Shown: in pieces, positions 6,353 through 45,887 of the stretch
How positions within the stretch are numbered: the first letter of the stretch is position 1
Layout of the letters: each line of letters begins with the position of its first letter
NCBI GenBank assembly: GCA_900128395.1
Contig: LT649283.1
Span: 1 to 46,172 of the forward strand
DNA: 46,172 nt
Direction: 5' to 3'
Origin: Stramenopiles sp. TOSAG23-2
Taxonomy: Eukaryota
Made by a program: the position numbers and the translations under genes
The notes under the pieces: generated by a model
Told to the model about the DNA's origin: nothing
The model's input: only the letters and a program-made list of their open reading frames with translations
Databases searched by the model: none

Positions 6353-8338
6353 TCATCGACCATGTAAATCAACATTGCCGCTAAATTCATCATGCCCAAG
6401 TTGAACCTCTGATTCTTTTGTACCGGAGGCTGTAACTGCTCGATCAGGTGTATCATACGCTTCTGGTGTAGTTTCTGAATCAGTGCCAGCAGGAGCAATG
6501 CCCATGTTTGCTGCTTTAGCAGCACCTTGAAATGATGGTGGGTGTTGCAAGTTTTCAATAGACTCCAATGCATCAGTGTAATATTTCTCATAATAAGTAC
6601 TGTAATAATCGGAGTAATATGCACTATAATAATTATTGTAATATTCACTTTGTGGCGAATCATGGCAATAATTGCAATGTTTATGTTTGTAATAACATAA
6701 ATGGCACCATATATCTTGATCTGGAGTACGTGTTAATGCCGTGGTTAACGTCGGTACAAGCGCATGCGTTACTGTTAACGTTAATAACTTATTCAATTTT
6801 ATAGGCAATGCACGTTCCATTAAATACGGTACAACTTTATTGACTTTTTCTGGTATTGCTTGTTGCAACGTTGGGACAATTTGATTAGCCATTTTAGGTA
6901 TAATATTTTGTGTGATAACTTCTGCCATTTTCGGCCCAAGTTGCATACCTAGTTCCGTGGAAATCGATTCTACTACTGTATGATGCAATGCATCTGTTAA
7001 CAGAGACACAACATTGTGCACAAGTGGCTGTGCTAACAATTCAATTTCATCCTCCGGAACATTCGATAAAACATCCCCAGGAACTTGGTCGGATAAAACT
7101 TGTGCTGTTCTCGACGTATCTTGTCGTAAAAAATTATTTATTAATCCTGGTATAAATGCATGTAAAAATTGCAATACTAATTCTGGTAAATCAGGTATTG
7201 GCTGTTCTTTTTTATTGCGTGTTTGTATAAATGCCATTTCATGCTTTGCTCTTAATGCTAATGTTTGGGATTCTAATAATGAACCATTGGCCAATCCGCA
7301 ATAATGTGGCATATGAGGTACTATAGGATGCCATGAATTTTTAATGCGTGGATATTTATTTAATAAATTTTTATTTGATTTTGCAAAATTTTCTGGTATA
7401 ACATGTCGACTTAATATCGAAATTGTTTTCATTGTTTTTCGTTTTCTTCTCCTTTCATTTATTAAATTACCACTTTGACCGTATAATATATCTCCTGTCA
7501 TTGCATCGACGAAATTTTTTGTTGGCCATAATTTTTGTTTAGATGGTGACAAAATATTTAAAAAACATTTATTCAATGCAAATCTGTTTATATCGTTGTA
7601 ATTATTATGATGATTATCAAGAATAATTTTACTAGTCATATCAGTGCCATGATGATCACGGTATCTCAATAACAATGCAAAATATAACGTATCTGTTGTG
7701 TTTGTCTCTCCTAATCCTTTGATTTCTTTCAGTATAGTAGGATTTTGTCTTTCTAATAAATTTATAATGGAACTTGTTAAACCATATACAGCTTTCGTAC
7801 CGTGTGGTAAACTTATTAAGTGCCATGGTGGTGTTGTTTCTTTACCTTTAAAATCATCAAATAAATCAGAATATGTTGGTATAATAAGTTTCGAATCACC
7901 TTTCAATTGGCATTCTAACGACATTGTACCACTGACACCAAGGTTCTTTTCCCTAACTTTTTTATTAGTAGTTATATTTACGATATTTGTTTTGGACAAA
8001 GGTGTTTCAGTTGGTAAATTTTCCTGTTTCCCATAAAAGTCTTCTAAATATACTTGTTGATTTAGCTTTAACTTTATAATTGCTGCCGTGAAATCAACAT
8101 GTCTTATATGTCGTTTAAATGCAATATTTTCCATCAAACCAGTTACACGATGTATTGTATATGTTGTTTTATTAATAAATGATGGTATATGGTTATGTAC
8201 ATGATTGTTGTTTTTTATATTATTATTATTACTAATACTATTTGTTTGAGTTATTATATTGTAATATATTAATATAATGAATATAAGGAAGTTACTATAA
8301 TAACAACGCATATTGTTGTTATGATTATATCTATACAT
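6353..8338 (-). CDS. Secreted protein of unknown function with a C-terminal Cys/His and Tyr-rich motif, 661 aa
   Basis: Long ORF with a hydrophobic N-terminal signal (FLIFIILIYYNIITQTNS), a run of amphipathic helices, then WCHLCYYKHKHCNYCH and YYNNYYSAYYSDYYSTYYEKYY. Confidence 0.8.
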   Translation of the reverse strand: MYRYNHNNNMRCYYSNFLIFIILIYYNIITQTNSISNNNNIKNNNHVHNHIPSFINKTTYTIHRVTGLMENIAFKRHIRHVDFTAAIIKLKLNQQVYLEDFYGKQENLPTETPLSKTNIVNITTNKKVREKNLGVSGTMSLECQLKGDSKLIIPTYSDLFDDFKGKETTPPWHLISLPHGTKAVYGLTSSIINLLERQNPTILKEIKGLGETNTTDTLYFALLLRYRDHHGTDMTSKIILDNHHNNYNDINRFALNKCFLNILSPSKQKLWPTKNFVDAMTGDILYGQSGNLINERRRKRKTMKTISILSRHVIPENFAKSNKNLLNKYPRIKNSWHPIVPHMPHYCGLANGSLLESQTLALRAKHEMAFIQTRNKKEQPIPDLPELVLQFLHAFIPGLINNFLRQDTSRTAQVLSDQVPGDVLSNVPEDEIELLAQPLVHNVVSLLTDALHHTVVESISTELGMQLGPKMAEVITQNIIPKMANQIVPTLQQAIPEKVNKVVPYLMERALPIKLNKLLTLTVTHALVPTLTTALTRTPDQDIWCHLCYYKHKHCNYCHDSPQSEYYNNYYSAYYSDYYSTYYEKYYTDALESIENLQHPPSFQGAAKAANMGIAPAGTDSETTPEAYDTPDRAVTASGTKESEVQLGHDEFSGNVDLHGR

Positions 8339-23556: not shown

Positions 23557-23805
23557 GGTTTATTTATATAGATCTTAATTGATATATATATATATATATA
23601 TGTACAACAATTCTTCTATGTCTTTGTACGTATAATATTATTAATAATAATATGTATGTATGTATCGTAGAGAAAACTAATAATTCTTTTTTTTATTACA
23701 GATATTATTATTATGCACTATGCACATCATATCACTACCAGGTATGGCTGCTGAAATAAGCCCTTTTTTAAAACAAAAAAATTATTATTACAAAAATTTA
23801 TCAAA

Positions 23806-23873
23806 TTTTTCATCTTATTTTTCATCTTATTTTTCATCTATTTTTCATCTATTTTTCATCTATTTTTCATCTA
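23806..23873. repeat. Minisatellite TTTTTCATCT(T)A x6
   Basis: Two 12-nt and four 11-nt units overlapping the 3' end of ORF 23860..24291(-). Confidence 0.9.
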
Positions 23874-24553
23874 TTTTTTCAGCCAATGTGCTAGTGCCTC
23901 GATCACCCATCATATTATTAGCCACTTGCTCATCCACATTGATAATCCTCGATTCTACGTCTTGTAAAGCTTCACTAACTTTACCATAAAATACTTTCAT
24001 TTGTTTAATAAAGGAATTAACCTGTTTGCCTTTATTCAGATATAACCAATTCTCATAGCCCTCAATGCTTGCTGTCTCAACACCATTGTCAACTGCAAAT
24101 GATATGGTCTTTTTATTCCTTTGAAGAAACAGCATAAAATGGTATCGTAGCTGTATTCGAGTTAGGGCACGAAACATCCCTTCTAACTCTTTTTTATGCA
24201 ATTCACATTGTTCATTTGTTGCATTAAATAGAACAAAACCTAGCCTTTGTTCCATTTGTGCAATTAATGCTTTTGCTACATGCTGAAACACTGTGATATA
24301 TTATGCATTAAATTTATTAAATTGATGCTATTTCCTAACTCCGTTGTATGTGTTGATGTAGCTGTAATAAACATATTACTATATGGATATACATGATTAT
24401 CAAATGATAATACAGATTGTGATAAAGATAAACAATTTGTGGTTAAATTTTCCGCTTTTTTGGCTATTTGTTTGCCTTTATGAATGCTTGACAAAAGCAT
24501 TGCAGATGGATCATTGTTTTTACTTTGGCTAATGTTTGGCATCTTTTTCAATT
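23860..24553 (-). pseudogene. 3' half of a disrupted WH2-repeat gene (one WH2 repeat plus an unknown helical C-terminal domain, frameshifted near 24295)
   Basis: ORF 24276..24563 begins LKKMPNISQSKNNDPSAMLLSSIHKGKQ (WH2-like) and overlaps out of frame with ORF 23860..24291, which has protein-like composition. Confidence 0.6.
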
Positions 24554-25039
24554 TTTGAAACATGCAAAGAAATTATGGCAACCATATCATGTAATGGATC
24601 AGAATATACAATTGTATTAGGAAAGAAAGTATTACAATTAAAAAAAGAAATAAAAAAAGATAAAACAAACTATAAAATACATGAATTGCAATTAAAGGAA
24701 CAAATAAAACAGTTGGAAATTGACAATGAAATTATGGTCAACATGTTAAAATTGAGATCAACAGAAATGGAAAGGATTTTGTATAACAACGATGTTGGAA
24801 AATACCATTATGCATGTGTTGATGCAATCGTTATGTTGAGCAAGAGCCAAGGTAAAAACAATGATCTGTCTGCAATGCAACGTTATGTTGAGCAAGAGCC
24901 AAGGTAAAAACAATGATCTGTCTGCAATGCTTTTGTCATGCATTCATAAAGGCAAACAATTGAAAAAGATGCCAAACATTAGCCAAAGTAAAACCAATGA
25001 TCTGTCTACAATGCTTTTGTCAAGCATTCATAAAGGCAA
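24472..25039. repeat. ~82-bp inverted repeat pair (24472-24553 vs 24958-25039)
   Basis: The reverse complement of 24472-24553 matches 24958-25039 with only about four substitutions. Confidence 0.92.
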
Positions 25040-25106
25040 GGTATTGAAAGAGATATTACCTTGTTTTGTTGTTAGTGTTTTTTGTAAGGTTCCGACAATA
25101 GCATAA
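24575..25106 (+). pseudogene. 5' half of the WH2-repeat gene (coiled coil plus two tandem WH2 motifs), frameshifted by a 52-bp duplication
   Basis: ATG at 24575, a heptad-rich region, then 84-bp repeats (24897, 24981) encoding SQ.K.NDLS.MLLS.IHKGK.LK. The sequence AGCCAAGGTAAAAACAATGATCTGTCTGCAATGC occurs at 24845 and 24897. Confidence 0.65.
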
Positions 25107-25478
25107 TAATAGCATGATAGAAGATACAGATATATAGCTAGGAATTTAGGAATAATTTTAAGGTTCCGACAATCTGAACAATAGCATAGCTATAGCTAAT
25201 AAGACAGAGAAGACGATACATTTATTATAACATCATATTTTTTCATATTATTTTAGTAGTATAGCTAAGCTATACACAATATATATATATATATAAATGC
25301 ATGCATACTACACATTGCCATTTACAAGTTATCAAGAGATAGAATGAAAGAATTTTATATTTAATTTATATATAATCAAGAAGATCAAATTTATATATAA
25401 TTCAACAACAGAAGATAATTCAATTACACCATAAACGATAATAAATTTAGAACGCACGGAACCTGTTATCACAACATC

Positions 25479-26737
25479 ATGTGGAAAGATACAACAATAT
25501 TATTTATTATTACCATTATATTATTTATATTTATAATTAATATTCAAAATACAGTATCATCATCAGCAATAATAACAAAACAAGATGCTAATAAAATAAA
25601 CAAATCATCACCATTTATCGTTGGTTTGACATATAACATCGATAAATCAACAACAACAACAACAACAAGAACGATGTTACGTCAGAAAAAACATATTTTA
25701 TTGAAACATCCAATTAATAATAATAATAATAATAATAACAACAATAATATTGCAGCACCACCAAGTGGAATATGTAAATTAGATATAAATACTGGGAATA
25801 TAACTTTACTTGAAAAATTTTTAGATGTTGTATATGTTATGGAAACGGCATATTCGCCAGAAGATCAAATATATTATTTATTAGTAAATGGATTTACATT
25901 AAAACGATTTTATTTAACAAATAATACATTTGCTAAAGATGATATTATAGTTGATATCAGTGATTGTGATGGTGGTTCTTCTTGTTTTAATGAAGTTCAT
26001 TTTGATTTGAAAAATAAACGTTTAATTGCTACTGGTGTTGGATATCCAAATGGTTTAGCAAATAGTATTGTTAGTATTGATATTCATACTGGTAAAGTGA
26101 AAAGTTTAGTGGAATTTTCAGTAGAATGTGGTGTATATTTAGAAGTAAGTAATAGTAAAATATTAATTCTTTCTATTTACATATATATATATATATATAC
26201 TAACAATTTAATACACACACACACACATAGTCATCAACGTATGATTCTAATATGAATAAACAATTTAGTTGGTTATCATGTTTAAATAATCCATATGTTG
26301 GTAATACATTATATATGTTTGATGTTATAACTGGTAGTAATGAAACGATTATGCAAACGGATCCACATACATTATTATCACCATTACTTGTTTCCGATAC
26401 ATTAAAAGAAATTATTGCGATTGATAATCGAAATAATTATTTAGTACGTATTGGTCAAAATACAAGTACAAAAATAAGTGACAATGATATTGGTGGTATA
26501 CCAGCAAATGATGGATTAGTTATGTTTGATACTATTAATACTAATAATGATGGAAATAATAATAATGGTCCAATTGTATATACAACAGTTGTTGATGGTA
26601 TGAAATCGAAATTAACAATTATCGATCATTTAACAAGTGACAATGGTAGGACGACGAGGACGACGACGATAGGTACGGTGCATACGATTGATGTAGAATG
26701 GACATTAAATTATATACATTTCGTGGAAGGTGTATAA
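25479..26737 (+). CDS. Secreted protein of unknown function, beta-propeller-like; 2 exons (25479-26144, 26231-26737), 390 aa
   Basis: Signal peptide and repeated [LI]D..TG blade-like motifs (LDINTG, IDIHTG, FDVITG). A phase-0 intron joins GVYLE|SSTYDSNMNK. Confidence 0.8.
26145..26230 (+). other. Spliceosomal intron (86 nt)
   Basis: GTAAGT donor, ACTAAC branch, ACATAG acceptor; in-frame join. Confidence 0.9.
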
Positions 26738-29594: not shown

Positions 29595-31345
29595 ATGAAT
29601 GCAACAACAAATTACAATAGTATACCACCAATAACAGAATCTACACCAATCAAATCAACTATATATGCACAAGGGAAACAACGTGGTTATTCGACAACAA
29701 CGGCAACACCAGAACCATCCCCATTAGGTCTTGGAATTTTGAAAAGAAAATACAATCGAAGATGGTGGATGTTATTTGTTTCATGTTTGTTAAATGTTGC
29801 AAATTCATGTGTATGGATAGCAGTGCCTACGGTACAAAATTTATTAGCACAACAATATAATGTAGAACAGCATGCAATTGTACAATTAACAAATATAGCA
29901 TATTTATTATATTTACCTGGATCTATCATAGGATTTTATATTTTAGAAAAAGGTGGTGTAAGTAATATATATATCTAATATATATATATATATATTGTCA
30001 TTTTAAAAAAACAAATACAAAAACAAAAACAAAACAAATAATATTTATCAATATAATACCTAACATATAAACATCATATAATAATAATAATATAGGTTGC
30101 AATTTCAACTGGTATTGGTGGTGCATTGTTAACACTTTGTTGTTGGCTTCGTGTAACTTCCTCATATATTGGAATTTTTTGGATTGAAATTGTAGCATCA
30201 ATTATTTTTGCCATTGGACAACCTTTAGTTATGAATGGTGTATCGAAATTTAATATGAATTGGATGCAAGAAGATGAACGTTTCTTATCAACTATGATTT
30301 ACAATACAGTACCATCTTCACTTGGTGGTGCATTACTTGGTGCATTTGTTGGTAGTGGGATACAAAGTGTAGATGACATACCAATGTATTTTGTCATCGT
30401 AGCATCATTTGTGACATTTGTTACATTATTATATGCATTGACAATTAAAGAACGAGCACCATTTCCACCGTATGTTATCAAAAGCAATATTTATATATAT
30501 ATATATAATCAACATCTCTAACACACAAACACATACATATACACACAATATTTTTAATCACAACAAACAGAGATCGTAAAAAATCTCGTGCAGCAAGTTT
30601 AATGAAACAACACCATTTGAATCCAAAAGAATTAACTATATGGTGGACATTAACACAACGTTCATTTTTGATTTTAATATATAATGTAAGTGTACAAATT
30701 GGATTAATATGTGCATTATCTGCCATTTTGCCATTATACATGGATGCATTGAATTATACATTTCAAGAGACTGCAGCTATATTAAGTATGTTTTTGTTTT
30801 CTGGCATATCTGGCGTGATAATATTAGCACCTGCTACTGATCATTTACAAAATCATTGGGAAAATTCACCGAAACATTTATTGATTTTACTTGCTGCAAT
30901 TGGTGTTGCTGGTGCATTTAGTTTAATTACAAATAGTATGGAGAATAATTTTTCCGCCATTGCTATTTCTGTTTGCATGATTAGTGTTTCAATAACTAGT
31001 GGAATTCCATTGGCATTGGAGGAAGGTGCTTCAATTAATCCAAGCAAAGCTGGATTTAGTGCATCGATTATGATTAGTGCAGGGAATTTACTAGGTTATG
31101 GAACAGTTTATCTAACTGAATTTTTAAAAGCAAATGAGAATTATAACAAAGCAGGTTATATATTTTTAGCTTTATTAAGTATTCAATTTATTGCAAATTT
31201 ATTTATTGAATCAAAACGTAGTAGTAAATTTGATGATGATGACTCAGATTATGAACAATATAATGATGATGAAGAAACAGAAATTGATTATGTTGATGTT
31301 GATGGAGAGTATGATGTACAAAATTCAACTGTGTACAATGCGTAA
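29595..31345 (+). CDS. MFS transporter, FLVCR/SLC49-like; 3 exons (29595-29957, 30096-30469, 30571-31345), 503 aa
   Basis: Y.RRWWML...N...WI, AIGQP and W...ER..ST motifs with about 12 TM segments. Two GT-AG introns link three ORFs in frame (EKGG|VAISTG and PFPP|DRKK). Confidence 0.88.
29958..30095 (+). other. Spliceosomal intron (138 nt)
   Basis: GTAAGT donor, CCTAAC branch, ATATAG acceptor; phase 0. Confidence 0.88.
30470..30570 (+). other. Spliceosomal intron (101 nt)
   Basis: GTATGT donor, TCTAAC branch, AAACAG acceptor; phase 2, in frame. Confidence 0.88.
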
Positions 31346-31747: not shown

Positions 31748-34700
31748 TTATGATAAATTGCTTGAATTATTTGGATTCCATTGCGAAATACTCCATCTAG
31801 TTTCAACAATATTTAGAAATTTAGTCAATTTTTCCGTCATCTTTCTCATATCACCATACATATCTTTGCTTTTATACCATTTTGATGCCCATTTACGATA
31901 AGTACCATTATTATGCATGGCCCGTAAAGCAAGTCCAGCTGATGCAGCGCCTAGATTTTGAATCTCTTCGTTTGTTGGTATAGGTACAATATTTGCAATC
32001 CTTGCACAACCTTCTAAAAAGTCTTCGAAACATAAAACTCTACCCCTTGCTGCATCTTTCCAATCATCTACGACTTTCATTTTACTACGTTCAAACACAA
32101 GTTTTGCTTTTTGCTTATTAAAGGTATCATCGAAAAATGTCAGTGCTGTCCATACATGTAACCAATCTTTTAATGTCATACGACGTACCATGCGATCATC
32201 ATGTCTAGACTTAGTGGAAAAACGCTTCCATACGCCTTGCAAGGTTGCAACATTGCTACGATACACATTGTCCATATCTTCATGGTATAAAAAGTCTTTT
32301 CTAAATTGATTGCTATCCCTGGAATCTGGATCCAATTGTGGAATTAAATCCTTATTGACAAACATTTGCAAAGCAGTTGGTGTATCGCTTGTAAGTTTTT
32401 CACTTTGTGCATATTTGGCATATGCAATACGTGTTATGGCATGGAGCCATTCAAAACGCATTAATGAACGATCATCGTTCGCACGATTTAAATTGCGAGT
32501 CTCTTCGTCCAATGTACCCGTTTCTTCTTTATTTGCAATTATAAAAGTATTTTCATGCGCTTTCATATTTAAAAATGGATTGATTTGACTTATCAATCCA
32601 AATTCTTCTAAAAAAATTTTAAAAGTTTTAAAGGAAATGACACTAACTTTTGTATTTATAATTGCATAGTGTTCAAAACAATCACAAATTGGATCATACA
32701 ATTTGCTTACAATATCCTTAGCATCTTGCATTTCATGTATCAATACTTCATCTCCACCATCTACTAAACGGCCCCATTCTTTATTTGGCAAAAGTCGTCT
32801 CCAATCAATATCCAACATACGTCCTCGTAACCATTCTTCACGATCATAAAAATCTCTAGATTCACTATGCCTTTCTCTACCTCTGAATACAGATTTAAAC
32901 AATGACCAAGCAGCACCTTCTTCCTCATCTTCAGAATCAGATCCTAAATCGCCAAATAGCTCCTCATCCGTAAAATCATCCTCGTCATCAATATCAGCAA
33001 CAGATTTATGTTTGTTTTTAAATACTTTTTTACTGCTATCATCTTTCTTTTTACGAATGGAAGATTTTTTCTTCAATTGAATTTTTAATAATAACGAGCT
33101 ATCGGTATATGGAATATTAGTTTCTTCGCATTTCAATGGTTTTTGCTTCTCAGTTTTAATGCTATGCGCAGTCAAATTGCTTTGTGAAAATGGATCTGGC
33201 GGTTGCAATGTACCACGTAAAATTGGGAAATCTACTTCAGGATGCACACCTGGAAAATGATTTGTAAAAACTAATGGTCCTGGAAATCGATGTGGGTGAC
33301 CTGGGTGCCTCCCAGGTTGAAGATCACTTTTGCAGTAATAATGTGTCAAAGTGCCATCTGGTAATGTAAAGATAGGAATACCAGACTTAGCGTTTGTGCT
33401 TCCAATGCAAGCAGGCCATTTTGCCATGCGAACACGATCATCTTTGCCAGGCACAGCATGATCTTTAAAGACAATTTTACGCCCATTATGCGCATTATCA
33501 GGCTGCAAATGGACAGTAAACGGTTCGCCTTTTTTCATTGTATTATCGTTGGCTCCTGTCTTAGATTTAGAATTATTATTTTGTTTCTCCTTTATTGATG
33601 CCATAGATGCTGATTGCCCCAATGTACTTGTTGGGGAAGTTGGCGAAGCAACTTCGTCTTTGTTTCCTTGATCATCACTTTCTTTCTTTTTCTTCTTCTT
33701 TCTACTATTTCGTTTACCGCCTTTTTTACCATTGGTATCATTTGCGGATGATATACGACTGTTAAATTTTACCAAAGGTGTTGTTGGCCTGCGTGCTTTT
33801 ATCAATTCATCACGTCTAGATGTTGGTACTGGTGATAAACTTTTCTCTAATTTTTTGCCAGTGCGCATATCCATAGCGTCCCCGTTAATAGTTGCTGTTG
33901 AAAGATCCGTAGATGAGACTGACTTATTCAATGGTGTGTCATACGAAGCTATTTTTGGTAACCATACATTACCATAACGAAATTTGGTCGCACGTGGTTT
34001 TTGACTTGCTAATGTTAATGCTAATGGGCGTCTCGTAATTTTTTCCAATGTAATTATTGGTTTTAAACGCACTTTGTCATCTGCCATGACTACATCAGCT
34101 TGTGCAGCTAGTGGGCACATCAACCATGCATCTTTTGCTATGTCCAGCCTCTTTTTATCCCAAATAGTTGTAAATCCATCTTTTTGTATCAATCCACTAC
34201 TATTTAATTCTTCGTCGCAAGCACCTGAATCAATAATTCGCCTTTTCATTTGTTTACTTCGTGCACCTTTCTCATTTAACAATTTCCTTAATTCTTCTTC
34301 CTTATCAATTTTATGCATAGTTGTTGCCATCTTCAATTGTGCTTGGTATAATATATTTAATGTTTTTGGATTTCTACTTATATTGTACACAGCACATTCG
34401 ACATCATCTACCAATTGCGGATGATCTGTTAATACCTTCAATGCACGTAACAAGACATTGATACCAGTTTTTGCAAGCTTTAAATGACTTACAGTCCACA
34501 TAGATAAATTTCGTAATGCATTTATCCCAAATTCTATGATGCCAATATAAGTCTCGTAATTATTTTTATAATCTTCCTCTACAAAATCTAAAGCTTTCCT
34601 AATTGTATTTCGTAAGCATTTTATTGCACCAAAATTTACAAGATCCTCCGCACGATGTTCATATAATGCTAAATCACCAAGGCCCCGGCATGCGATTTCC

Positions 34701-37180
34701 TCTAATTTTGTATCGCTTTCGCTTAATAGAGATATGTACAGTCGTTCCATTAATGTGCTTTGTTTTCGATCTGCCACGTCATTACTGTCTTCTAATGCAT
34801 GTGGGTGAGCATCGGCTATAGCTTCCAAGGCCCCAGCTGCAAATTGACGAGTTAAATTCGATACACCTTGATGTTTACTAGCTATATGTACTAATGTATA
34901 TAATATACCAAATGGTAGCAATTCTTCTGCTAATTTTGGCGATGTATAAAATGCATCCCAAAACATAGCACAGGTCCATGTGACGACGTGGTAATCTGAA
35001 TCTTCCAACCATGTGATAACTTCCAACGCGTATTTTTCTGCCAATACTTCATGCCTTGCTTTCATGTTTGTAACTGTCATTAAAAAGAAAAGGCCAACTA
35101 TCCGTTTCCGTATGTTTTTCTCTTCATCATTCCATTTATCTTTTTTCTCTGTTCCATTTAATTCTATCATAATTTTCATTAATGATGGTGTTACTTTAGT
35201 GTCGGCTAAAATTCTGCAACAAACAGTTGATTTTGCTAGACACCACAAACTTGAAATTACATAATTTAACGCTAACCAATCGCCCTTTTCCGCGAATGAT
35301 GGCAATCGTGCCACTGTTTCTACTAATTTATGTAACAACACATGATTCTCTAATTTTGGTATGGTATTCTTGTCACATAGTGCTAATATTGATGCAGCTA
35401 AATAACGTTGTGTAGCTGGTTCACATCCATATTTCATACGTTTTCCTAAGGCGACGACTACATTGAAAAAAAAATTGGCACCAGCATTATCAACCACACG
35501 ATAGTTTTGTGAAATCAACGCCGTTGACAGCGCCGAAGCAGTTGCTATACATACATCTGTCGCTGCTGGTCTTTCAATCACTTTTAAAAATTCTGTAAAA
35601 CTATCGACAGAAAGTGTGACACCTAATGATACTAAATTTGCAATTGTTGCGCAAGTCGTACTAGATGTTATTACATTTAAGCTACCTGACAATCTAAAAA
35701 GTACGTCACCTAATGGATCTTCTATTGATAGTGTCTCTGGCAAGTGATTCATTAAATTGATTTTCACATTTCTTGTCTTGCTTTTTAATTGCATTTGTAT
35801 GGCGCCACTTGTAAAGCCATTTAGTGCCATGGCTATATAATTATGAAACGTGGCTACACCTAACTTTTTAACAGTCTCAATTCCGTTCTTTTCATTAGCA
35901 ATTATTACTAAACGCATAATATAATCCCATGAACCAGATTCACAAAGAACTCTTCTTCCTTGTGGGAAGCGTAATGTCATTGCGCTAGCATACAGCGCAC
36001 TAAGCCAAACATCGTCATCCGGGTGATGGATTAAAGCAGACGCAAATGTTGCTAGTTCAATGCCGTCTTCAAAATTATTTGAAAAACGATTCAAGAGTAT
36101 ACTTATGGAAGCTAAAATGGTTTTAAATATCGAGCGTTGACTTGTTGTTGGTTTATTGTTTCCCTCCTCTGATGGCTGTTCTGTTTGTGGTAGACTTTCA
36201 ATCGAATTGATTGAATCCCTTAGAGATAATAATAATTTCCCGCACGAAGAACTTTTTGATAAATCACCCCACTGTCCAATATCAGGGTCATGGTAATCTA
36301 ATTCCCTATATAATAATTCATAAATGCAAAGACCATATTTATGCGATGGTAGCTCTTTGCCGAATTTCTTCAATGCAACTCCAATTGCTGCTATAATATC
36401 CATTTTTCTCCACAAATGCTGTATACCAGAATCAATAGTTGATACTAACCAGAAAATTTTTGCAGCAGATGTGCATAAGTCAATATTATCACTTGTCAAA
36501 CATCTCATTAAATTATTAGCTGTTTTCTCATCATATAGCCTTGGACAGAAATCGTCGCTTCGAGTTGAAACCAGTTGCCATATTCTATCACAACTTGTAT
36601 ATAATAAATCTTCTAAAGTTTCATGTTTTTCTATTTTCTGCCCATCCTCATCCAACCCATCCTCATCCTCGACTTCCTCTTTTCCATCATGTTGTTGTCC
36701 TTTTTTATGTTTACGGTGATGTCGATGAGTTTTTCTCTTGTTTATATCTGTGGTTTTCAAATCTTTTAAGCATCTTCGAAATACTTTACTTTCATGCGCT
36801 GCTATACGGTCATTGATTCTAGCATCCCATGCTGCTAATGATTTCGCTAGGTGTTTACCAAATATAATATCTGCCATTTGATGTACGTCCCTAAATACAA
36901 CAACAGAGTCTTCAGGTATATCAGGGAACAACTCCCTTGACTTATTTTTAAAATCCATTATTTTCACATTAATATATTTTCTCATAGATGTCGATCCACT
37001 AGTTACCAAACGGTCGACAATGCTTGTCATTTTTTTAACCCCACTTTCTGGAACTTTTACCATAACTTCTTTAATTTCATCCCCATATTGCAATCTAGCT
37101 TTCGCAGGTATTAATTTGACAGCTTTACGTTTCACACGTTTGGGAGAATTTCCCGTAGCCTTTCCAACGAGAGATTGCAT
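31748..37180 (-). CDS. Large ARM-repeat protein with C-terminal EF-hand-like helical modules (1810 aa)
   Basis: Uninterrupted 5.4-kb ORF with armadillo-like helices (AAGALEAIA, ACRGLGDLA, GINALRNLS), a disordered linker and C-terminal modules (CFEHYA, LMRFEWLHAITRIA, FEDFLEGCARIA). Confidence 0.85.
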   Translation of the reverse strand: MQSLVGKATGNSPKRVKRKAVKLIPAKARLQYGDEIKEVMVKVPESGVKKMTSIVDRLVTSGSTSMRKYINVKIMDFKNKSRELFPDIPEDSVVVFRDVHQMADIIFGKHLAKSLAAWDARINDRIAAHESKVFRRCLKDLKTTDINKRKTHRHHRKHKKGQQHDGKEEVEDEDGLDEDGQKIEKHETLEDLLYTSCDRIWQLVSTRSDDFCPRLYDEKTANNLMRCLTSDNIDLCTSAAKIFWLVSTIDSGIQHLWRKMDIIAAIGVALKKFGKELPSHKYGLCIYELLYRELDYHDPDIGQWGDLSKSSSCGKLLLSLRDSINSIESLPQTEQPSEEGNNKPTTSQRSIFKTILASISILLNRFSNNFEDGIELATFASALIHHPDDDVWLSALYASAMTLRFPQGRRVLCESGSWDYIMRLVIIANEKNGIETVKKLGVATFHNYIAMALNGFTSGAIQMQLKSKTRNVKINLMNHLPETLSIEDPLGDVLFRLSGSLNVITSSTTCATIANLVSLGVTLSVDSFTEFLKVIERPAATDVCIATASALSTALISQNYRVVDNAGANFFFNVVVALGKRMKYGCEPATQRYLAASILALCDKNTIPKLENHVLLHKLVETVARLPSFAEKGDWLALNYVISSLWCLAKSTVCCRILADTKVTPSLMKIMIELNGTEKKDKWNDEEKNIRKRIVGLFFLMTVTNMKARHEVLAEKYALEVITWLEDSDYHVVTWTCAMFWDAFYTSPKLAEELLPFGILYTLVHIASKHQGVSNLTRQFAAGALEAIADAHPHALEDSNDVADRKQSTLMERLYISLLSESDTKLEEIACRGLGDLALYEHRAEDLVNFGAIKCLRNTIRKALDFVEEDYKNNYETYIGIIEFGINALRNLSMWTVSHLKLAKTGINVLLRALKVLTDHPQLVDDVECAVYNISRNPKTLNILYQAQLKMATTMHKIDKEEELRKLLNEKGARSKQMKRRIIDSGACDEELNSSGLIQKDGFTTIWDKKRLDIAKDAWLMCPLAAQADVVMADDKVRLKPIITLEKITRRPLALTLASQKPRATKFRYGNVWLPKIASYDTPLNKSVSSTDLSTATINGDAMDMRTGKKLEKSLSPVPTSRRDELIKARRPTTPLVKFNSRISSANDTNGKKGGKRNSRKKKKKKESDDQGNKDEVASPTSPTSTLGQSASMASIKEKQNNNSKSKTGANDNTMKKGEPFTVHLQPDNAHNGRKIVFKDHAVPGKDDRVRMAKWPACIGSTNAKSGIPIFTLPDGTLTHYYCKSDLQPGRHPGHPHRFPGPLVFTNHFPGVHPEVDFPILRGTLQPPDPFSQSNLTAHSIKTEKQKPLKCEETNIPYTDSSLLLKIQLKKKSSIRKKKDDSSKKVFKNKHKSVADIDDEDDFTDEELFGDLGSDSEDEEEGAAWSLFKSVFRGRERHSESRDFYDREEWLRGRMLDIDWRRLLPNKEWGRLVDGGDEVLIHEMQDAKDIVSKLYDPICDCFEHYAIINTKVSVISFKTFKIFLEEFGLISQINPFLNMKAHENTFIIANKEETGTLDEETRNLNRANDDRSLMRFEWLHAITRIAYAKYAQSEKLTSDTPTALQMFVNKDLIPQLDPDSRDSNQFRKDFLYHEDMDNVYRSNVATLQGVWKRFSTKSRHDDRMVRRMTLKDWLHVWTALTFFDDTFNKQKAKLVFERSKMKVVDDWKDAARGRVLCFEDFLEGCARIANIVPIPTNEEIQNLGAASAGLALRAMHNNGTYRKWASKWYKSKDMYGDMRKMTEKLTKFLNIVETRWSISQWNPNNSSNLS

Positions 37181-39462: not shown

Positions 39463-42400
39463 TTAAAATTGAAAACGTCTTACAGTACCAGGTGATTTTG
39501 GTTTTGGAGTTTTCTTCTTCTTTTTGTTTGCCGATGATGTAGTCGTAGCACGTGCAACATTAACACGATTACCATTACTGACTTGTTTAGTATCATTGCT
39601 GTGGCTATTTGTACTACTACCACCCTTAATTGTTTTAACAACTTTTCCACCATTAGCAATATCACTGCTGTTACTAGTAGAACCCTTCACTTTTCCTTTA
39701 TACATACCAAAAAATGAACCCCGTTTTTCAATATTTCTCCAAATTTTACTGGTTTTCGGTTTTTGTTTTCTTTCCTTTACAGGGCTAGAGTTTCTCATTG
39801 ATGTTAACTTAGATACACGCTGGCGCTCCTTAGCCGCGTCCCGCATTCGTTTTAAGTATTTAGCTTCACCCGGACTACGAACAAATAATTTCGGAGCAGC
39901 AACTTTTGTTTGGCGTTCGATAATACTAGCAGCACTTGCTGAGTGATTATCTGATGAATAAGGTGAAAATGGCGATGACTTATTTTTACTTGTTTTTCGA
40001 ACCCATTGGTTTGATGGAGTGCCATTTCCTTTTGTACTAGAATTTTGTTTTTTGGTTACTGCCTTGCCATTCGACAGTGGTCGACGACTATTATGGATTG
40101 GACTTTTACGTTTATCTTCATCCGTTAAAACACCTAGAATTTCTTCCATAGTTGGAGGCTCTGCTATTCTATCATTGTCAAAAGCGACTCGTTTTACTGG
40201 AATGATATCGTTTCTACGTGGATGGCGCTGGTGCTTACTAGCAACGGTTGGCTTGGTGGTATTCTTGCGAAAAGGTTTTACTTCTATCTCCCCTTTTCCA
40301 TTGCCTTTTTTAGAGCTTTTTTCAACACCAAAACGCATCAAGTCAGTTGCTTCAAGAAAATCAATTACATTTGTAATGGAGAGATCTACGGTTTTATCAC
40401 GTGTTAGCAAATGATAAATAGCTAAAACATCCTCATTGGTAAGACGCCCATTGAAATCGGTGCCTTGAGATATTTTATCAATACCAATTTGAAACTCCTC
40501 CAACGTTATGGCTGTACTATTTTTTGCCATCATTAAACTTGGAAAGTCAGCGAATGTGTCACCAATCCACGATTTGCACGCAATTTTTAACCTGTTTTTA
40601 ATGTCAAACAATTCTTCATATGTATATTTCACCGGGCGGAACGGCTGAATAACCGAATTCAAGCGTGCAGTACCAGTCTTTGGGGAAGATGCACGTCGAT
40701 TGGTCTCATCCTCATCATTTGTTCCCTTTTGATTTTTTGATTTGGTCTCTTTCTCTTCTGCTATAAATTTTTGATTCAAATTGGTCGGGCTTAAACTGCT
40801 TGAGGATATGATGCTATCACTACGAAGTTTTTTCACAGTCGATCGGCGATTGTAGAATTGGTATGTAAATTCACCATATGTAATAAAGCCATTATCGTCT
40901 GGGTCTAAAATGCGGAATAAACTCGCAATTTCGTCATCTGTAATTGGTGAACCAGAACCACCTTCTTCTCTGCACAATTTATGGACGAAATTTACAAATT
41001 CATCAATCAAGATAGTACCACTACCATCCGTATCGATTTCTTGAAATTCTTTCTTTAAATTTAATTTGCCAAGGGAATTCCTTGTTTTATCAGCATGTTC
41101 CCGAATTTTTGACATTGTCATGTTAAAGTGACTGATTAAATCATGAGCTTCAGCAATATCTTTCACATTGGTTGTTACTTTAGATTTTCGACAAACTTCT
41201 TCACCATCCAGAAATGCTTTTGTCATTTTAAGACCAGTGTAACCATGGCCCCTTGACCATTCTAAATTTTCAATCTCATTCATACCTTCGCTTGCTTTTA
41301 ACCATCCAAAAAAGCCATGCACACGATGTTCTGGTAATGGATGTGTTTTTTTTAAATATGGCTTTGAAAATGCTAATAAACCCATTCGGGCAAAGCATTC
41401 AACCCATTCACTATAGGTCAAAAGATCTGGTGCTTCAATTGGATTTCTACGCGATGCACGGAAACACATAAAAATTTCCGAACGTGTTAATATAGAAGGT
41501 GTCAAATTGAAATTATGTGTTATTTCTTCTAATTCTACATATGAAATTGCTTTGGTTCTATCTTCACCAGGTGTCCAAAATGGTTTCTTTTCATGGCGTC
41601 GTGTGGAAAAGTATGTAAAAATCCGCTGCAAAGTCATTTCTTGCTCTTTCAACACCGCAACAACTTGCTCCTCGTTCAATTGCTCCATTGCAGCGTCAGC
41701 TTCGTCATGGCCATAACCAAAGCACGAAACACGGCTAGCATATTTTAAAACATGTTGCTCTACCATGATTAATAACGAATCTGCCAAATCTAAAATTTGT
41801 TCTCGATAATTCTGATTCATATGAATGTAACTCATAGAATCTTCTTCATCTTCAATTAAATCTAATAACCGTTCTGCGCGATCAGCTTCGCTTTCAGTTG
41901 TTACTTTCTTTAATATATGTTTTTTTTTCAAGTCTTCTTTCCTCGGGCTCGTTGGTTGCCACGTTAAGTGCACGGACGCTCGTCTAGGTTGTATTGGGCT
42001 TGCAAACTGTTTCTTTATCGGTGATTTAATTTGTGGATAATCATGAAGTCGCTTTTCTTTTTTATTTAGGATATTAAATCTATCCTCATTAATTTTATGA
42101 TGGCGCAATCCACCTGGTCCAACTCTATGTTCAAGTATATGTGCTACGCGTGCCAATCCTAGTTTGCAACGATCAAAGTTAATCCACCCATGTGGTTTTT
42201 CCATTGTTGATAAATCTACATAAATAACATCTGCTTCTGCACGAGATATCCATAAATCATGCATTTCCTCTTCCATTTCATCCCCGTTATACGAATCATT
42301 GCCCTCCCTCATCAATTTGCTATCACGCAATAGTTTCATCCAATTAAATGAATCCAAACGATTAAAATTAAGTTTATGGCGATTATTTAAAAAACAATAA

Positions 42401-44205
42401 TATTCAAACACTTCTAATAATTGACTTTCGTATGGCTCCAACGTCCTTACAGCACGTTCTAATGGCTTATCCGGTTTCCACAATGGACTAAATACTGAGC
42501 TGGCGACTGCTGAGCTCATTAAATGGGAAGAGTTTTTATCCCATTCAGCAGCAAATCGTTTTTCAGCATCTGTTAATTTACCAGCTTGTTTCACGCGTTG
42601 CTCTTCTTCTTCTTCCTCATTGTCATCATCAACGAGTTTTAAATCCTTTATCTCATGTACCTTTTCACGTTGCTCTTGATTACGTTGGTATTTTGGTGGA
42701 GAATGTTTAATAAGTTCAGATAATCTTGGCGGCTGTATGATTTCCATCTCATCATCGCTGCTACCATTTCCATCTTCGCTTACTGATCTCATGATTCTAC
42801 CTTTCATTTTCGTATTTTGATTCTTATTTTTGCTATGATTTAAAACTAGAAAATTCTTGCTATTGGTCCTTTTGTTGTTGTTGTTATTGTTATTGTTGCT
42901 AGTAGTACTTGCACCAAATTTATGATACAAACGATGCAATGATGTCGGACTGCGTTTAAAACGCCTTTTTTTGCTCTTCCCCATGATTTGATGTGTTGAC
43001 ATTTTATGCCTATATACTTGTTTCCCCAATTGCCTATTTTCTTCAATAATTAATCTCAATTTTTCATTATATCTAAATAACTCTAAAAAACCACTTAATT
43101 TACTTTCAGCTGTTTTATGTCTTTCATTTAAAAATGGTTTTGAGTACCCTAACATTGCAGCACGCCCCATTACTTCTAGGAATTCAGGAAATTCCATCAA
43201 ATCATGCTCATGCGCCACATGGGTCCAGATACGAAATAATTCCAATTTGGATACAATTGTTTGTGGAATTTTAAAATCATTGAAAACATTTCGTAAACCA
43301 GTTTGTTGTAAAAATAAACGATCATCTATTGTTCTAGATGGTGTAGCATAATAATTATAAATTTTCATCATTGTTGGTGTATTATTGCGTAATATTGTAA
43401 CCAATTTATCATCTAATAAAAATTCAGCACTTGGAAGTGGTTCTAAATGTTCTGAATTTATAATGATATATTTGCTTATTACGTTTTCGACGATACCTGG
43501 CAATGCGTTTGCTTCTTTTTCTTTCGTTACAATATTATTATTTTTTGCATTTTTTGCTTTTACAGTTAAACATATACAACGTAACCAACCTTTAAATGAT
43601 AATTGTGTTGAACGTTGTCGTTTAGATAAAAACTGATTATTATTATTATCATCGATTTCGCCCATATTATTGGTATTACTATTAGTTGGTGATCGAATAC
43701 TATTGCGTGGACTTTTATTGTTATTACTGCTAGTTCCTCTATTACTATATTTGTTTTCCTGTTGTACATCTTTTTTCAATGCTTCTTTAAATAATACTTG
43801 TATTTGTGCCAATGGATATTTTGTCGGCAAATATTGCGACTCTCGTATGAATTTAGCGTAATTGGACAGTTTCATCGATGTCAAATTGTACGAATCGCCA
43901 TAGCTTGAGTAATATTGAAATATTTGTGTTAACTGTTCCAAATAATCACTATTGCATAACGCTTCAACTATATCATCCACTGGATCGTTTTCTACTTCTT
44001 TTTCTAAATGTACATCTGTTATAAAATTTTGCTTCTTGATTTCATCTTCGCCAACAGGGTGATCTGTTGGCGATCGTCTACCTTTATTGAGTACTGCCAT
44101 AGATAAACGGCGCGCAACGTGTTTTGCGGATAATACTTGTGACATCCGTCTAGCTGATTTTTGAAATTTTCTTAAAGGCGAGTTTGCTTTTGGTGAGGAC
44201 GACAT
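39463..44205 (-). CDS. Large EF-hand protein with repeated p25alpha/EF-like helical modules (1580 aa)
   Basis: Canonical EF-hand pair DTDGSGTILIDEF / DPDDNGFITYGEF; four L..[IV]F.Y[YF] modules, two ending E...R..[ML]L.[YF]SKP[FY]L; basic Ser-rich tail. Confidence 0.88.
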   Translation of the reverse strand: MSSSPKANSPLRKFQKSARRMSQVLSAKHVARRLSMAVLNKGRRSPTDHPVGEDEIKKQNFITDVHLEKEVENDPVDDIVEALCNSDYLEQLTQIFQYYSSYGDSYNLTSMKLSNYAKFIRESQYLPTKYPLAQIQVLFKEALKKDVQQENKYSNRGTSSNNNKSPRNSIRSPTNSNTNNMGEIDDNNNNQFLSKRQRSTQLSFKGWLRCICLTVKAKNAKNNNIVTKEKEANALPGIVENVISKYIIINSEHLEPLPSAEFLLDDKLVTILRNNTPTMMKIYNYYATPSRTIDDRLFLQQTGLRNVFNDFKIPQTIVSKLELFRIWTHVAHEHDLMEFPEFLEVMGRAAMLGYSKPFLNERHKTAESKLSGFLELFRYNEKLRLIIEENRQLGKQVYRHKMSTHQIMGKSKKRRFKRSPTSLHRLYHKFGASTTSNNNNNNNNKRTNSKNFLVLNHSKNKNQNTKMKGRIMRSVSEDGNGSSDDEMEIIQPPRLSELIKHSPPKYQRNQEQREKVHEIKDLKLVDDDNEEEEEEQRVKQAGKLTDAEKRFAAEWDKNSSHLMSSAVASSVFSPLWKPDKPLERAVRTLEPYESQLLEVFEYYCFLNNRHKLNFNRLDSFNWMKLLRDSKLMREGNDSYNGDEMEEEMHDLWISRAEADVIYVDLSTMEKPHGWINFDRCKLGLARVAHILEHRVGPGGLRHHKINEDRFNILNKKEKRLHDYPQIKSPIKKQFASPIQPRRASVHLTWQPTSPRKEDLKKKHILKKVTTESEADRAERLLDLIEDEEDSMSYIHMNQNYREQILDLADSLLIMVEQHVLKYASRVSCFGYGHDEADAAMEQLNEEQVVAVLKEQEMTLQRIFTYFSTRRHEKKPFWTPGEDRTKAISYVELEEITHNFNLTPSILTRSEIFMCFRASRRNPIEAPDLLTYSEWVECFARMGLLAFSKPYLKKTHPLPEHRVHGFFGWLKASEGMNEIENLEWSRGHGYTGLKMTKAFLDGEEVCRKSKVTTNVKDIAEAHDLISHFNMTMSKIREHADKTRNSLGKLNLKKEFQEIDTDGSGTILIDEFVNFVHKLCREEGGSGSPITDDEIASLFRILDPDDNGFITYGEFTYQFYNRRSTVKKLRSDSIISSSSLSPTNLNQKFIAEEKETKSKNQKGTNDEDETNRRASSPKTGTARLNSVIQPFRPVKYTYEELFDIKNRLKIACKSWIGDTFADFPSLMMAKNSTAITLEEFQIGIDKISQGTDFNGRLTNEDVLAIYHLLTRDKTVDLSITNVIDFLEATDLMRFGVEKSSKKGNGKGEIEVKPFRKNTTKPTVASKHQRHPRRNDIIPVKRVAFDNDRIAEPPTMEEILGVLTDEDKRKSPIHNSRRPLSNGKAVTKKQNSSTKGNGTPSNQWVRKTSKNKSSPFSPYSSDNHSASAASIIERQTKVAAPKLFVRSPGEAKYLKRMRDAAKERQRVSKLTSMRNSSPVKERKQKPKTSKIWRNIEKRGSFFGMYKGKVKGSTSNSSDIANGGKVVKTIKGGSSTNSHSNDTKQVSNGNRVNVARATTTSSANKKKKKTPKPKSPGTVRRFQF

Positions 44206-45338: not shown

Positions 45339-45887
45339 TTATTTTTTTGATTGTTTAGTAAAAAAACGTTTTGATGTGATACCTTTGAAAAATGTTTCCG
45401 TAATCATAACTCCATCATCATCAAAATACATTTTAATTACTATACCTGGAAATTTACCTTCAACTATTTCACGTCTCATTGTTTTCCCATCATCAATCCA
45501 TGTAAATTTCATTTTACTTTCATCGCCTTGCCCACTCACGACAGTTTGTTCCGTACCATCAATAGTAACATTATTTGTAAATGTTTTCATGCCAATAGTT
45601 TCCCATTCAAATTCTGGATCAGTATGTGTAATATTTAATTTTGCTTTATTGACACCATAACCAAATGCCCAAGCTGCATTTCGCATAACCATTCCAACAC
45701 CAACTGATTTTAAAAATTCACCCGTATTCTCTTCACCAGTGCACTGTGTGTTTGATGTATACATGTTAGTTCGAGATGTTTTTATATATTATTTTAATTT
45801 CCTTTTATTTTTATTTTTAGTGTCGGGAAGAATGATGTGAGAAATGATACTTACTAAATATTGTCCTGTAAAATCAACTGCAGCCAT
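45339..45887 (-). CDS. Fatty-acid-binding protein (FABP/calycin family); 2 exons (45887-45855, 45743-45339), 145 aa
   Basis: The spliced N-terminus MAAVDFTGQYL|CTGEENTGEFLKSVGVGMVMR matches the FABP pattern F.G.[WY]....EN..E[FY]L...GV....R. Beta-strand body ends in SKRFF. Confidence 0.85.
45744..45854 (-). other. Spliceosomal intron (111 nt)
   Basis: GTAAGT donor at 45854, ACTAAC branch, CACACAG acceptor ending at 45744; phase 0. Confidence 0.88.

Follow-up and report, generated by a model that had tools for sequence, protein, structure and literature searches.

The locus described here lies in a window of 46,172 nt, by which we mean the whole stretch of DNA that was analysed, with a base composition of 30.9% G+C and an N count of 0. 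The proteins encoded in the window are of ordinary eukaryotic types: an M1 peptidase, a cyclophilin, a nucleotide-sugar transporter, a DnaJ protein, a mitochondrial carrier, a GT8 glycosyltransferase, an EF-hand protein, PfkB and NIPSNAP. Two uninterrupted minus strand ORFs, 31748-37180 (1810 aa) and 6353-8338 (661 aa), match no Pfam family at E ≤ 1e-5, and in the ORF 39463-44205 (1580 aa) an EF-hand pair is the only Pfam match. The locus is located between the GT8 gene on the minus strand (start 23556) and an unannotated plus strand gene (start 25479), and normal genes extend for more than 20 kb to either side. The two genes to the left of the locus belong to 90%-identity clusters with 35 and 24 members, which come mainly from metagenome assemblies and include two members with marine-survey names. 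The host of the window is an AT-rich, intron-poor marine microbial eukaryote, and the locus is nuclear.

Introns in the window are few and short. Four were verified by an open spliced frame, at 952-1034 and 45744-45854 on the minus strand and at 26145-26230 and 30470-30570 on the plus strand, and all four (83-111 nt) combine a GTAAGT or GTATGT donor with a CTAAC box. These signals are strict and yeast-like, as is typical for intron-poor genomes.

Several simple repeats occur around the locus. An 11-nt tandem repeat, ATTTTTCATCT (6.5 copies, 98% matches), occupies 23805-23878 and overlaps the stop codon of the ORF for the C-domain described below; contigs of the sequencing runs X1 and X2 break there with loose ends that enter other sequence, so the repeat is probably also present elsewhere in the genome. 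(AT)n microsatellites are found at 23590-23602 and 25279-25295, one on each side of the locus, and run contigs break near both. In the AT-rich spacer between the stop of the plus strand ORF and the gene at 25479, short direct repeats of 18 nt (94%) and 19 nt (84%) recur 74-83 nt apart (25082-25113 and 25156-25196).

The reading frames of the locus diverge from two start codons only 11 nt apart, at 24563 on the minus and at 24575 on the plus strand. The plus strand start opens a 110-codon ORF (24575-24907) encoding an N-domain that is helical in the predicted model, followed by the first half of a repeat unit (unit B), after which translation runs out of frame to a stop. This frameshift is due to an exact 52-bp tandem duplication (24829-24930, repeat family D1), in which the 50-nt copies 24829-24878 and 24881-24930 are identical at 50/50 positions with a start-to-start spacing of 52. 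The minus strand start opens a 95-codon ORF (24276-24563) consisting of four codons (MFQK), a further repeat unit (unit A) and a linker segment (24384-24470). It is followed by a 143-codon ORF on the same strand (23860-24291), encoding an orphan C-terminal domain (from here: C-domain), for which a public 131-aa protein model (P0001) starts at the ATG at 24255. The initial annotation let the minus strand repeat run on into about 200 further codons; open sequence is indeed present there, although it is split into these two ORFs of 95 and 143 aa, which lie in different frames and overlap by 16 nt.

The repeat units themselves can be read directly from the sequence. Two 28-aa repeats with an 84-bp period were expected on the plus strand, and they are present as unit B (24876-24959) and unit C (24960-25043); the repeat search reports them as a tandem repeat at 24897-25054 with period 84, 1.9 copies and 89% matches. 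Together with the predicted third copy on the minus strand, unit A (24468-24551, 28 codons), unit C forms an inverted repeat that is slightly longer than the 82 bp claimed: its arms, 24472-24556 and 24955-25039, measure 85 nt each, are 94% complementary (80/85 identical, the longest uninterrupted match being 36 nt) and enclose 398 nt. Over 84 nt, unit A differs from unit C at 7 positions and from unit B at 16, and there are 19 differences between B and C; in the comparison of A with C, most of the codon changes are non-synonymous (4, against 1 synonymous). Within the 46-kb window, the repeat is confined to this locus. The 29-nt unit core has three occurrences, always here, with 0 expected from 100 shuffles, and the peptide core pattern likewise has three matches in the six-frame translation, none of them outside the locus, with no match in any of 200 shuffles. 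Unit C is followed by the start motif of a further unit, which extends to 25054 (repeat family D3), and by a 20-codon tail to the stop at 25106 (together 25044-25106). An inverted 11/12 match between 24541-24552 and 25043-25054, previously read as microhomology at the breakpoints, exists as such; it is not independent of the repeat, because the unit start motif recurs one period further on and family D3 runs to 25054. We also considered a MITE or foldback element and rejected it: no target-site duplication was seen at the arm ends, and the arms are in-frame coding units of a tandem array.

The units probably represent a WH2-like motif, as judged from sequence comparison. In the WH2 consensus, an LKK[TV]-type motif comes after a hydrophobic helix (LL..I), and this core pattern was found at three sites, all within the locus, with IAKK in unit A at the position of LKK or LKE in units B and C. 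Like the WH2 motifs of Spire and N-WASP, the units contain a short helix-forming LL..I..G stretch followed by LKK or LKE, once every 28 residues. In a search of 177,635 distinct PDB sequences, all three matches at E ≤ 10 were tandem-WH2 constructs (Spire 3mn7 and 3ue5, N-WASP 3m3n; E 0.13-0.86), aligned motif to motif at similar spacing. The Pfam family WH2 (PF02205) was the top match of the plus strand 81-aa ORF 24861-25106, which carries units B and C, with two matched stretches and a whole-protein E-value of 0.0026; the score of 17.8 bits stays below the gathering threshold of 23.1 bits, and the ORF containing unit A had no Pfam match even at E ≤ 10. The suggestion that these are WH2 repeats therefore holds at the level of the motif, while the family assignment remains sub-threshold and does not extend to unit A. 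The same low scores, the PDB E-values, the flanking domains without homologues and the mostly non-synonymous differences between units would also suit a locus that is not an actin-binding gene, in which the WH2 likeness had arisen by chance in a young, fast-evolving or non-functional repeat. The exclusive recovery of tandem-WH2 constructs with corresponding spacing and the two stretches matched by Pfam speak against such a coincidence, and we consider it unlikely, though with a chance that should be kept in mind; it is independent of the question of how the locus was rearranged. Actin binding by the units is what we infer from this motif likeness.

A chain of consecutive WH2 units characterizes several actin assembly factors, among them Spire and Cobl. 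The protein reconstructed below would resemble them in having three consecutive WH2-like units with short linkers. Consecutive WH2 units in an actin assembly factor are likewise described for VopL/VopF (PMC5412564, PMC5412575). The locus differs from VopL in the lack of a demonstrated dimerisation domain comparable to that of VopL, and from Spire, Cobl, VopL and VopF in the lack of sequence homology outside the motif. Pfam and HMMER searches found no KIND, FYVE, proline-rich or Arp2/3-binding region at the locus. Moreover, no present ORF from the N-domain ATG at 24575 holds a single complete motif, since that ORF stops inside unit B; units B and C lie in an ORF with an internal ATG only, and unit A is encoded on the opposite strand. 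The proposed role as a nucleator is an extrapolation. Nor could the coiled coil assigned earlier to the N-domain be established, as 283 of 2000 shuffles did equally well in the heptad a/d test over residues 14-62. Single-sequence AlphaFold2 models of the plus strand ORF (helical, mean pLDDT 44.6) and of the C-domain (mean pLDDT 53.9) are too poor to base a fold comparison on.

Relatives of the flanking domains are scarce. An exhaustive HMMER search with the C-domain against 1.84 billion representatives returned three proteins, namely P0001, which is the C-domain model itself (131 aa, source 'eukprot', a one-member cluster), and P0002 and P0003, both long and built of many tandem repeats, which we judged spurious. 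A word-indexed search with the C-domain found the query alone, and the corresponding search with the plus strand ORF among proteins of near lengths yielded no relatives. In the libraries searched, neither the N-domain nor the C-domain had an intact homologue, and no intact protein with this architecture and C-domain was found. Searches of genome contigs with the GT8 neighbour and P0034 (see below) returned no related loci, JGI metagenome contigs contained nothing similar to the C-domain or P0034, and viral contigs nothing similar to the C-domain, P0034 or the 95-aa ORF; a viral or mobile-element origin, which we had considered, is without support in these empty scans.

The one informative relative was obtained with the 95-aa ORF, which matched a single protein in a search against longer proteins, P0034 (205 aa, encoded on a 2351-bp metagenome contig). 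The last 29 residues of P0034 correspond to window positions 24470-24384 at 26/29 identical residues (90%), and this linker match ends at most 2 bases from the outer edge of the left repeat arm. Residues 29-122 of P0034 show weak similarity to residues 17-91 of the plus strand ORF (E 0.003 in a BLASTP of this one pair, shuffle z 4.3, with 2 of 2000 shuffles scoring as well); among 65 stop-free stretches of the window one scored as high against P0034, and that one is probably the plus strand ORF itself. In P0034, the N-domain-like region is situated directly upstream of the linker and on the same strand, in agreement with the idea that the N-domain and the linker of our locus were formerly on one strand. 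P0034 has no recognisable repeat unit ahead of the linker, and its ORF ends shortly past it. Because a weak N-domain similarity stands beside a linker of 90% identity, its relation to the locus is, on sequence grounds, that of a mosaic and not simple orthology.

The break between the linker and the C-domain could in principle be bridged by splicing. GT...AG intervals that join the two minus strand ORFs in frame exist, with GTATAT or GTAATA donors: one of about 110 nt (roughly 24283-24392) connects the linker (...SFDNH) to the C-domain, and a second option is likewise in frame. These intervals would allow the locus to be read as a pair of small live genes arranged head to head, products of an inverted duplication of a unit, with a functional minus strand gene composed of unit A, linker, intron and C-domain, and a plus strand gene composed of N-domain and units. 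The stop of P0034 just past the linker would fit an intron start at this place, and the C-domain ORF is represented by a public eukaryote protein model (P0001). However, none of three candidate donors has a G at position +5 and the CTAAC box is absent, in contrast to the four of four verified introns of the window. An intron is poorly supported for lack of the GTAAGT or GTATGT donor and the CTAAC box, and it probably does not account for the minus strand frame break. Among the contigs of X19, an oligo-dT RNA library made from a metagenome sample, one of 151 nt, about 99% identical to 24250-24404, is unspliced; it aligns over 24250-24390, its 10 loose letters equal window positions 24395-24404, and the intervening 4-nt deletion (24391-24394) would change the frame and so alters the phase of any such junction. 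The depth of this contig is 2-3 and it may derive from DNA. Further X19 matches at 23764-23796 and 24639-24669 were set aside as low-complexity. Against two live genes also count the 11 nt between the start codons, which leave no room for promoters, and the frameshift in the plus strand ORF. We also rejected the reading of the duplication as a 52-nt intron; the stretch is GT...AG by construction, but neither the donor nor the branch signal typical of introns in this organism is present. We regard two live genes as unlikely. Between the alternatives of the initial annotation, a gene killed by inversion and a shufflon-like switch, the dead copy is the better supported in view of the exact 52-bp duplication and the minus strand break without intron signals.

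Whether the assembled arrangement exists in the source DNA was addressed with read-derived contigs. Runs X1 and X2, from two samples of one organism, contained 95% of the sampled words, and among the contigs listed are 23849-24501, 24524-24858, 24901-24987, 24958-25039 and 25010-25639, with 0 differences from the window; X1 and X2 are possibly the data behind the window assembly, in which case these matches are not independent support. The left junction is contained in the contig 24524-24858 and the right junction in 25010-25639, at a depth of 51-73 in X1 and 114-126 in X2, which resembles that of the flanks. Both assembled junctions are thus covered by contigs of X1 and X2 at single-copy depth, which is evidence against a chimera. 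Run X21 (organism B) had no contigs on the locus; the runs compared in this way were X1, X2, X19 and X21. Amplification chimeras typically have inverted junctions at short homologies, and run contigs break within the repeats, so that an assembly or amplification artefact, with the units in direct order in the true genome, deserves consideration. Nevertheless, the junctions are found without a single difference in two runs of two samples, an internal inversion would need two independent chimeric junctions, the long stretches of normal genes on either side (more than 20 kb) are unremarkable, and the arms differ at 5/85 positions, hence are no copy artefact. An artefact of this kind appears highly improbable to us.

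A further X2 contig matches 24420-24572 at 90% or more but has different flanks on both sides, and its frame stays open on read-through; no such contig is among the loose ends listed for X1. Judged by its sequence, it is likely a paralogue with a single WH2-like unit.

Flipping the segment in silico joins the frames directly. When 24552-25043 is inverted and one 52-bp copy is removed, a continuous 230-codon ORF with three motifs results, comprising in frame the N-domain, units B, C and A and the linker, with its stop at 24276-24278. Inverting the interior alone (24557-24954) yields a 202-codon ORF, likewise in frame, with two motifs. Neither ORF reaches the C-domain without a further frame change. 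The proposal that a flip rebuilds one minus strand gene consequently stands as far as the joined frames and the three motifs are concerned; it needs one 52-bp copy to be dropped, and the C-domain that was part of the proposal is left out. Three WH2-like units on one polypeptide do not occur in the present sequence and appear only in the flip without one 52-bp copy.

Inversion between inverted repeats is known from bacterial shufflons, Hin-type invertases and the yeast 2-micron FLP/FRT system. As in these systems, an inverted repeat (85-nt arms, 80/85 identical) flanks the segment with the start codon, and a flip would change the C-terminus of the protein. Homologous recombination of the arms could toggle the 398-nt interior between a full-length state, running from the N-domain through two units to the linker and onward, and the present split state. 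The arm identity with its 36-nt identical core and the in-frame 202-codon product would permit such a reversible flip. The k=31 contigs are compatible with a mixed population as well: X1 and X2 contigs look the same in either orientation because 31-letter words fall short of the 36-nt core plus a distinguishing base on each side, and there were no strand-changing joints among the contigs listed, where none could have been seen across the identical core. On the other hand, none of 30 window ORFs scanned against Pfam (outside the locus, ORFs of at least 120 aa) belongs to a recombinase, integrase or transposase family, so that, in contrast to the known systems, no recombinase was found near the locus. 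The arms are short and diverged and represent coding units instead of dedicated sites, the locus is in a eukaryotic nuclear genome, and the gene is broken in either orientation, as the flipped state retains the 52-bp duplication and the second frame break. We therefore hold a reversible switch to be very improbable. Lower still we rate a variant resembling phase variation, in which occasional homologous recombination in the nuclear genome of a marine protist would flip the 398-nt interior and so alternate the gene between a split form and one that joins N-domain, repeats, linker and C-domain, with the 52-bp duplication as a recent strain-specific lesion.

The best reading of the locus is a fixed inversion in a decaying, lineage-specific WH2-like repeat gene, to which we assign about an even chance. 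It is favoured because the flip joins the frames and because the N-domain of P0034 is on the strand of the linker. The geometry of the repeats, the mostly non-synonymous changes between units A and C and the unspliced X19 contig with its 4-nt deletion also count in its favour. The ancestral gene would have been encoded on the minus strand and would have consisted of a helical N-domain, a short tandem array of WH2-like units, the linker and the orphan C-domain. An inversion of about 0.5 kb (roughly 24552-25043) would then have moved the start codon, the N-domain and two units to the plus strand, with one breakpoint coinciding with the boundary of a unit and the other falling just ahead of the start codon, and with the 11/12-nt unit start motif at both junctions. 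The 85-nt inverted repeat would be an automatic product of this event, since neighbouring units formerly in direct order now point toward each other, and the 20-codon tail before the stop at 25106 would be former upstream DNA. As later lesions, the exact 52-bp tandem duplication would have broken the plus strand ORF, and a frame break would have parted the linker from the C-domain. The two lesions together mark the locus as decaying, that is, as a pseudogene or at best a set of short remnant ORFs; this loss of function and the order of events we infer from the present arrangement. Pseudogenes can originate from small rearrangements such as microhomology-associated inversion and tandem duplication, and the locus resembles these in the 11/12-nt motif common to its junctions, the exact short tandem duplication and the further frame break.

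Several points run counter to the inversion model. The ancestral architecture is deduced from one mosaic relative, P0034, in which the N-domain is weakly similar and no repeat unit is recognisable ahead of the linker. Since the P0034 ORF, too, ends soon past the linker, linker and C-domain may never have formed one exon, or the break may hold an unusual intron. Finally, the X2 contig with other flanks suggests a family of paralogues or mosaics, which complicates a history with one event.

As a decaying orphan gene, the locus would be of modest interest, chiefly as a caveat for annotation, and the public 131-aa model P0001 is probably a remnant. It would be remarkable only with a demonstrated population of two orientations. 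If the units bind actin, however, the locus would represent a WH2-repeat protein specific to this lineage, in a marine microbial eukaryote that has received little study, and it would show how such an array may grow by duplication of an 84-bp unit and be lost by inversion, short duplication and frame break.
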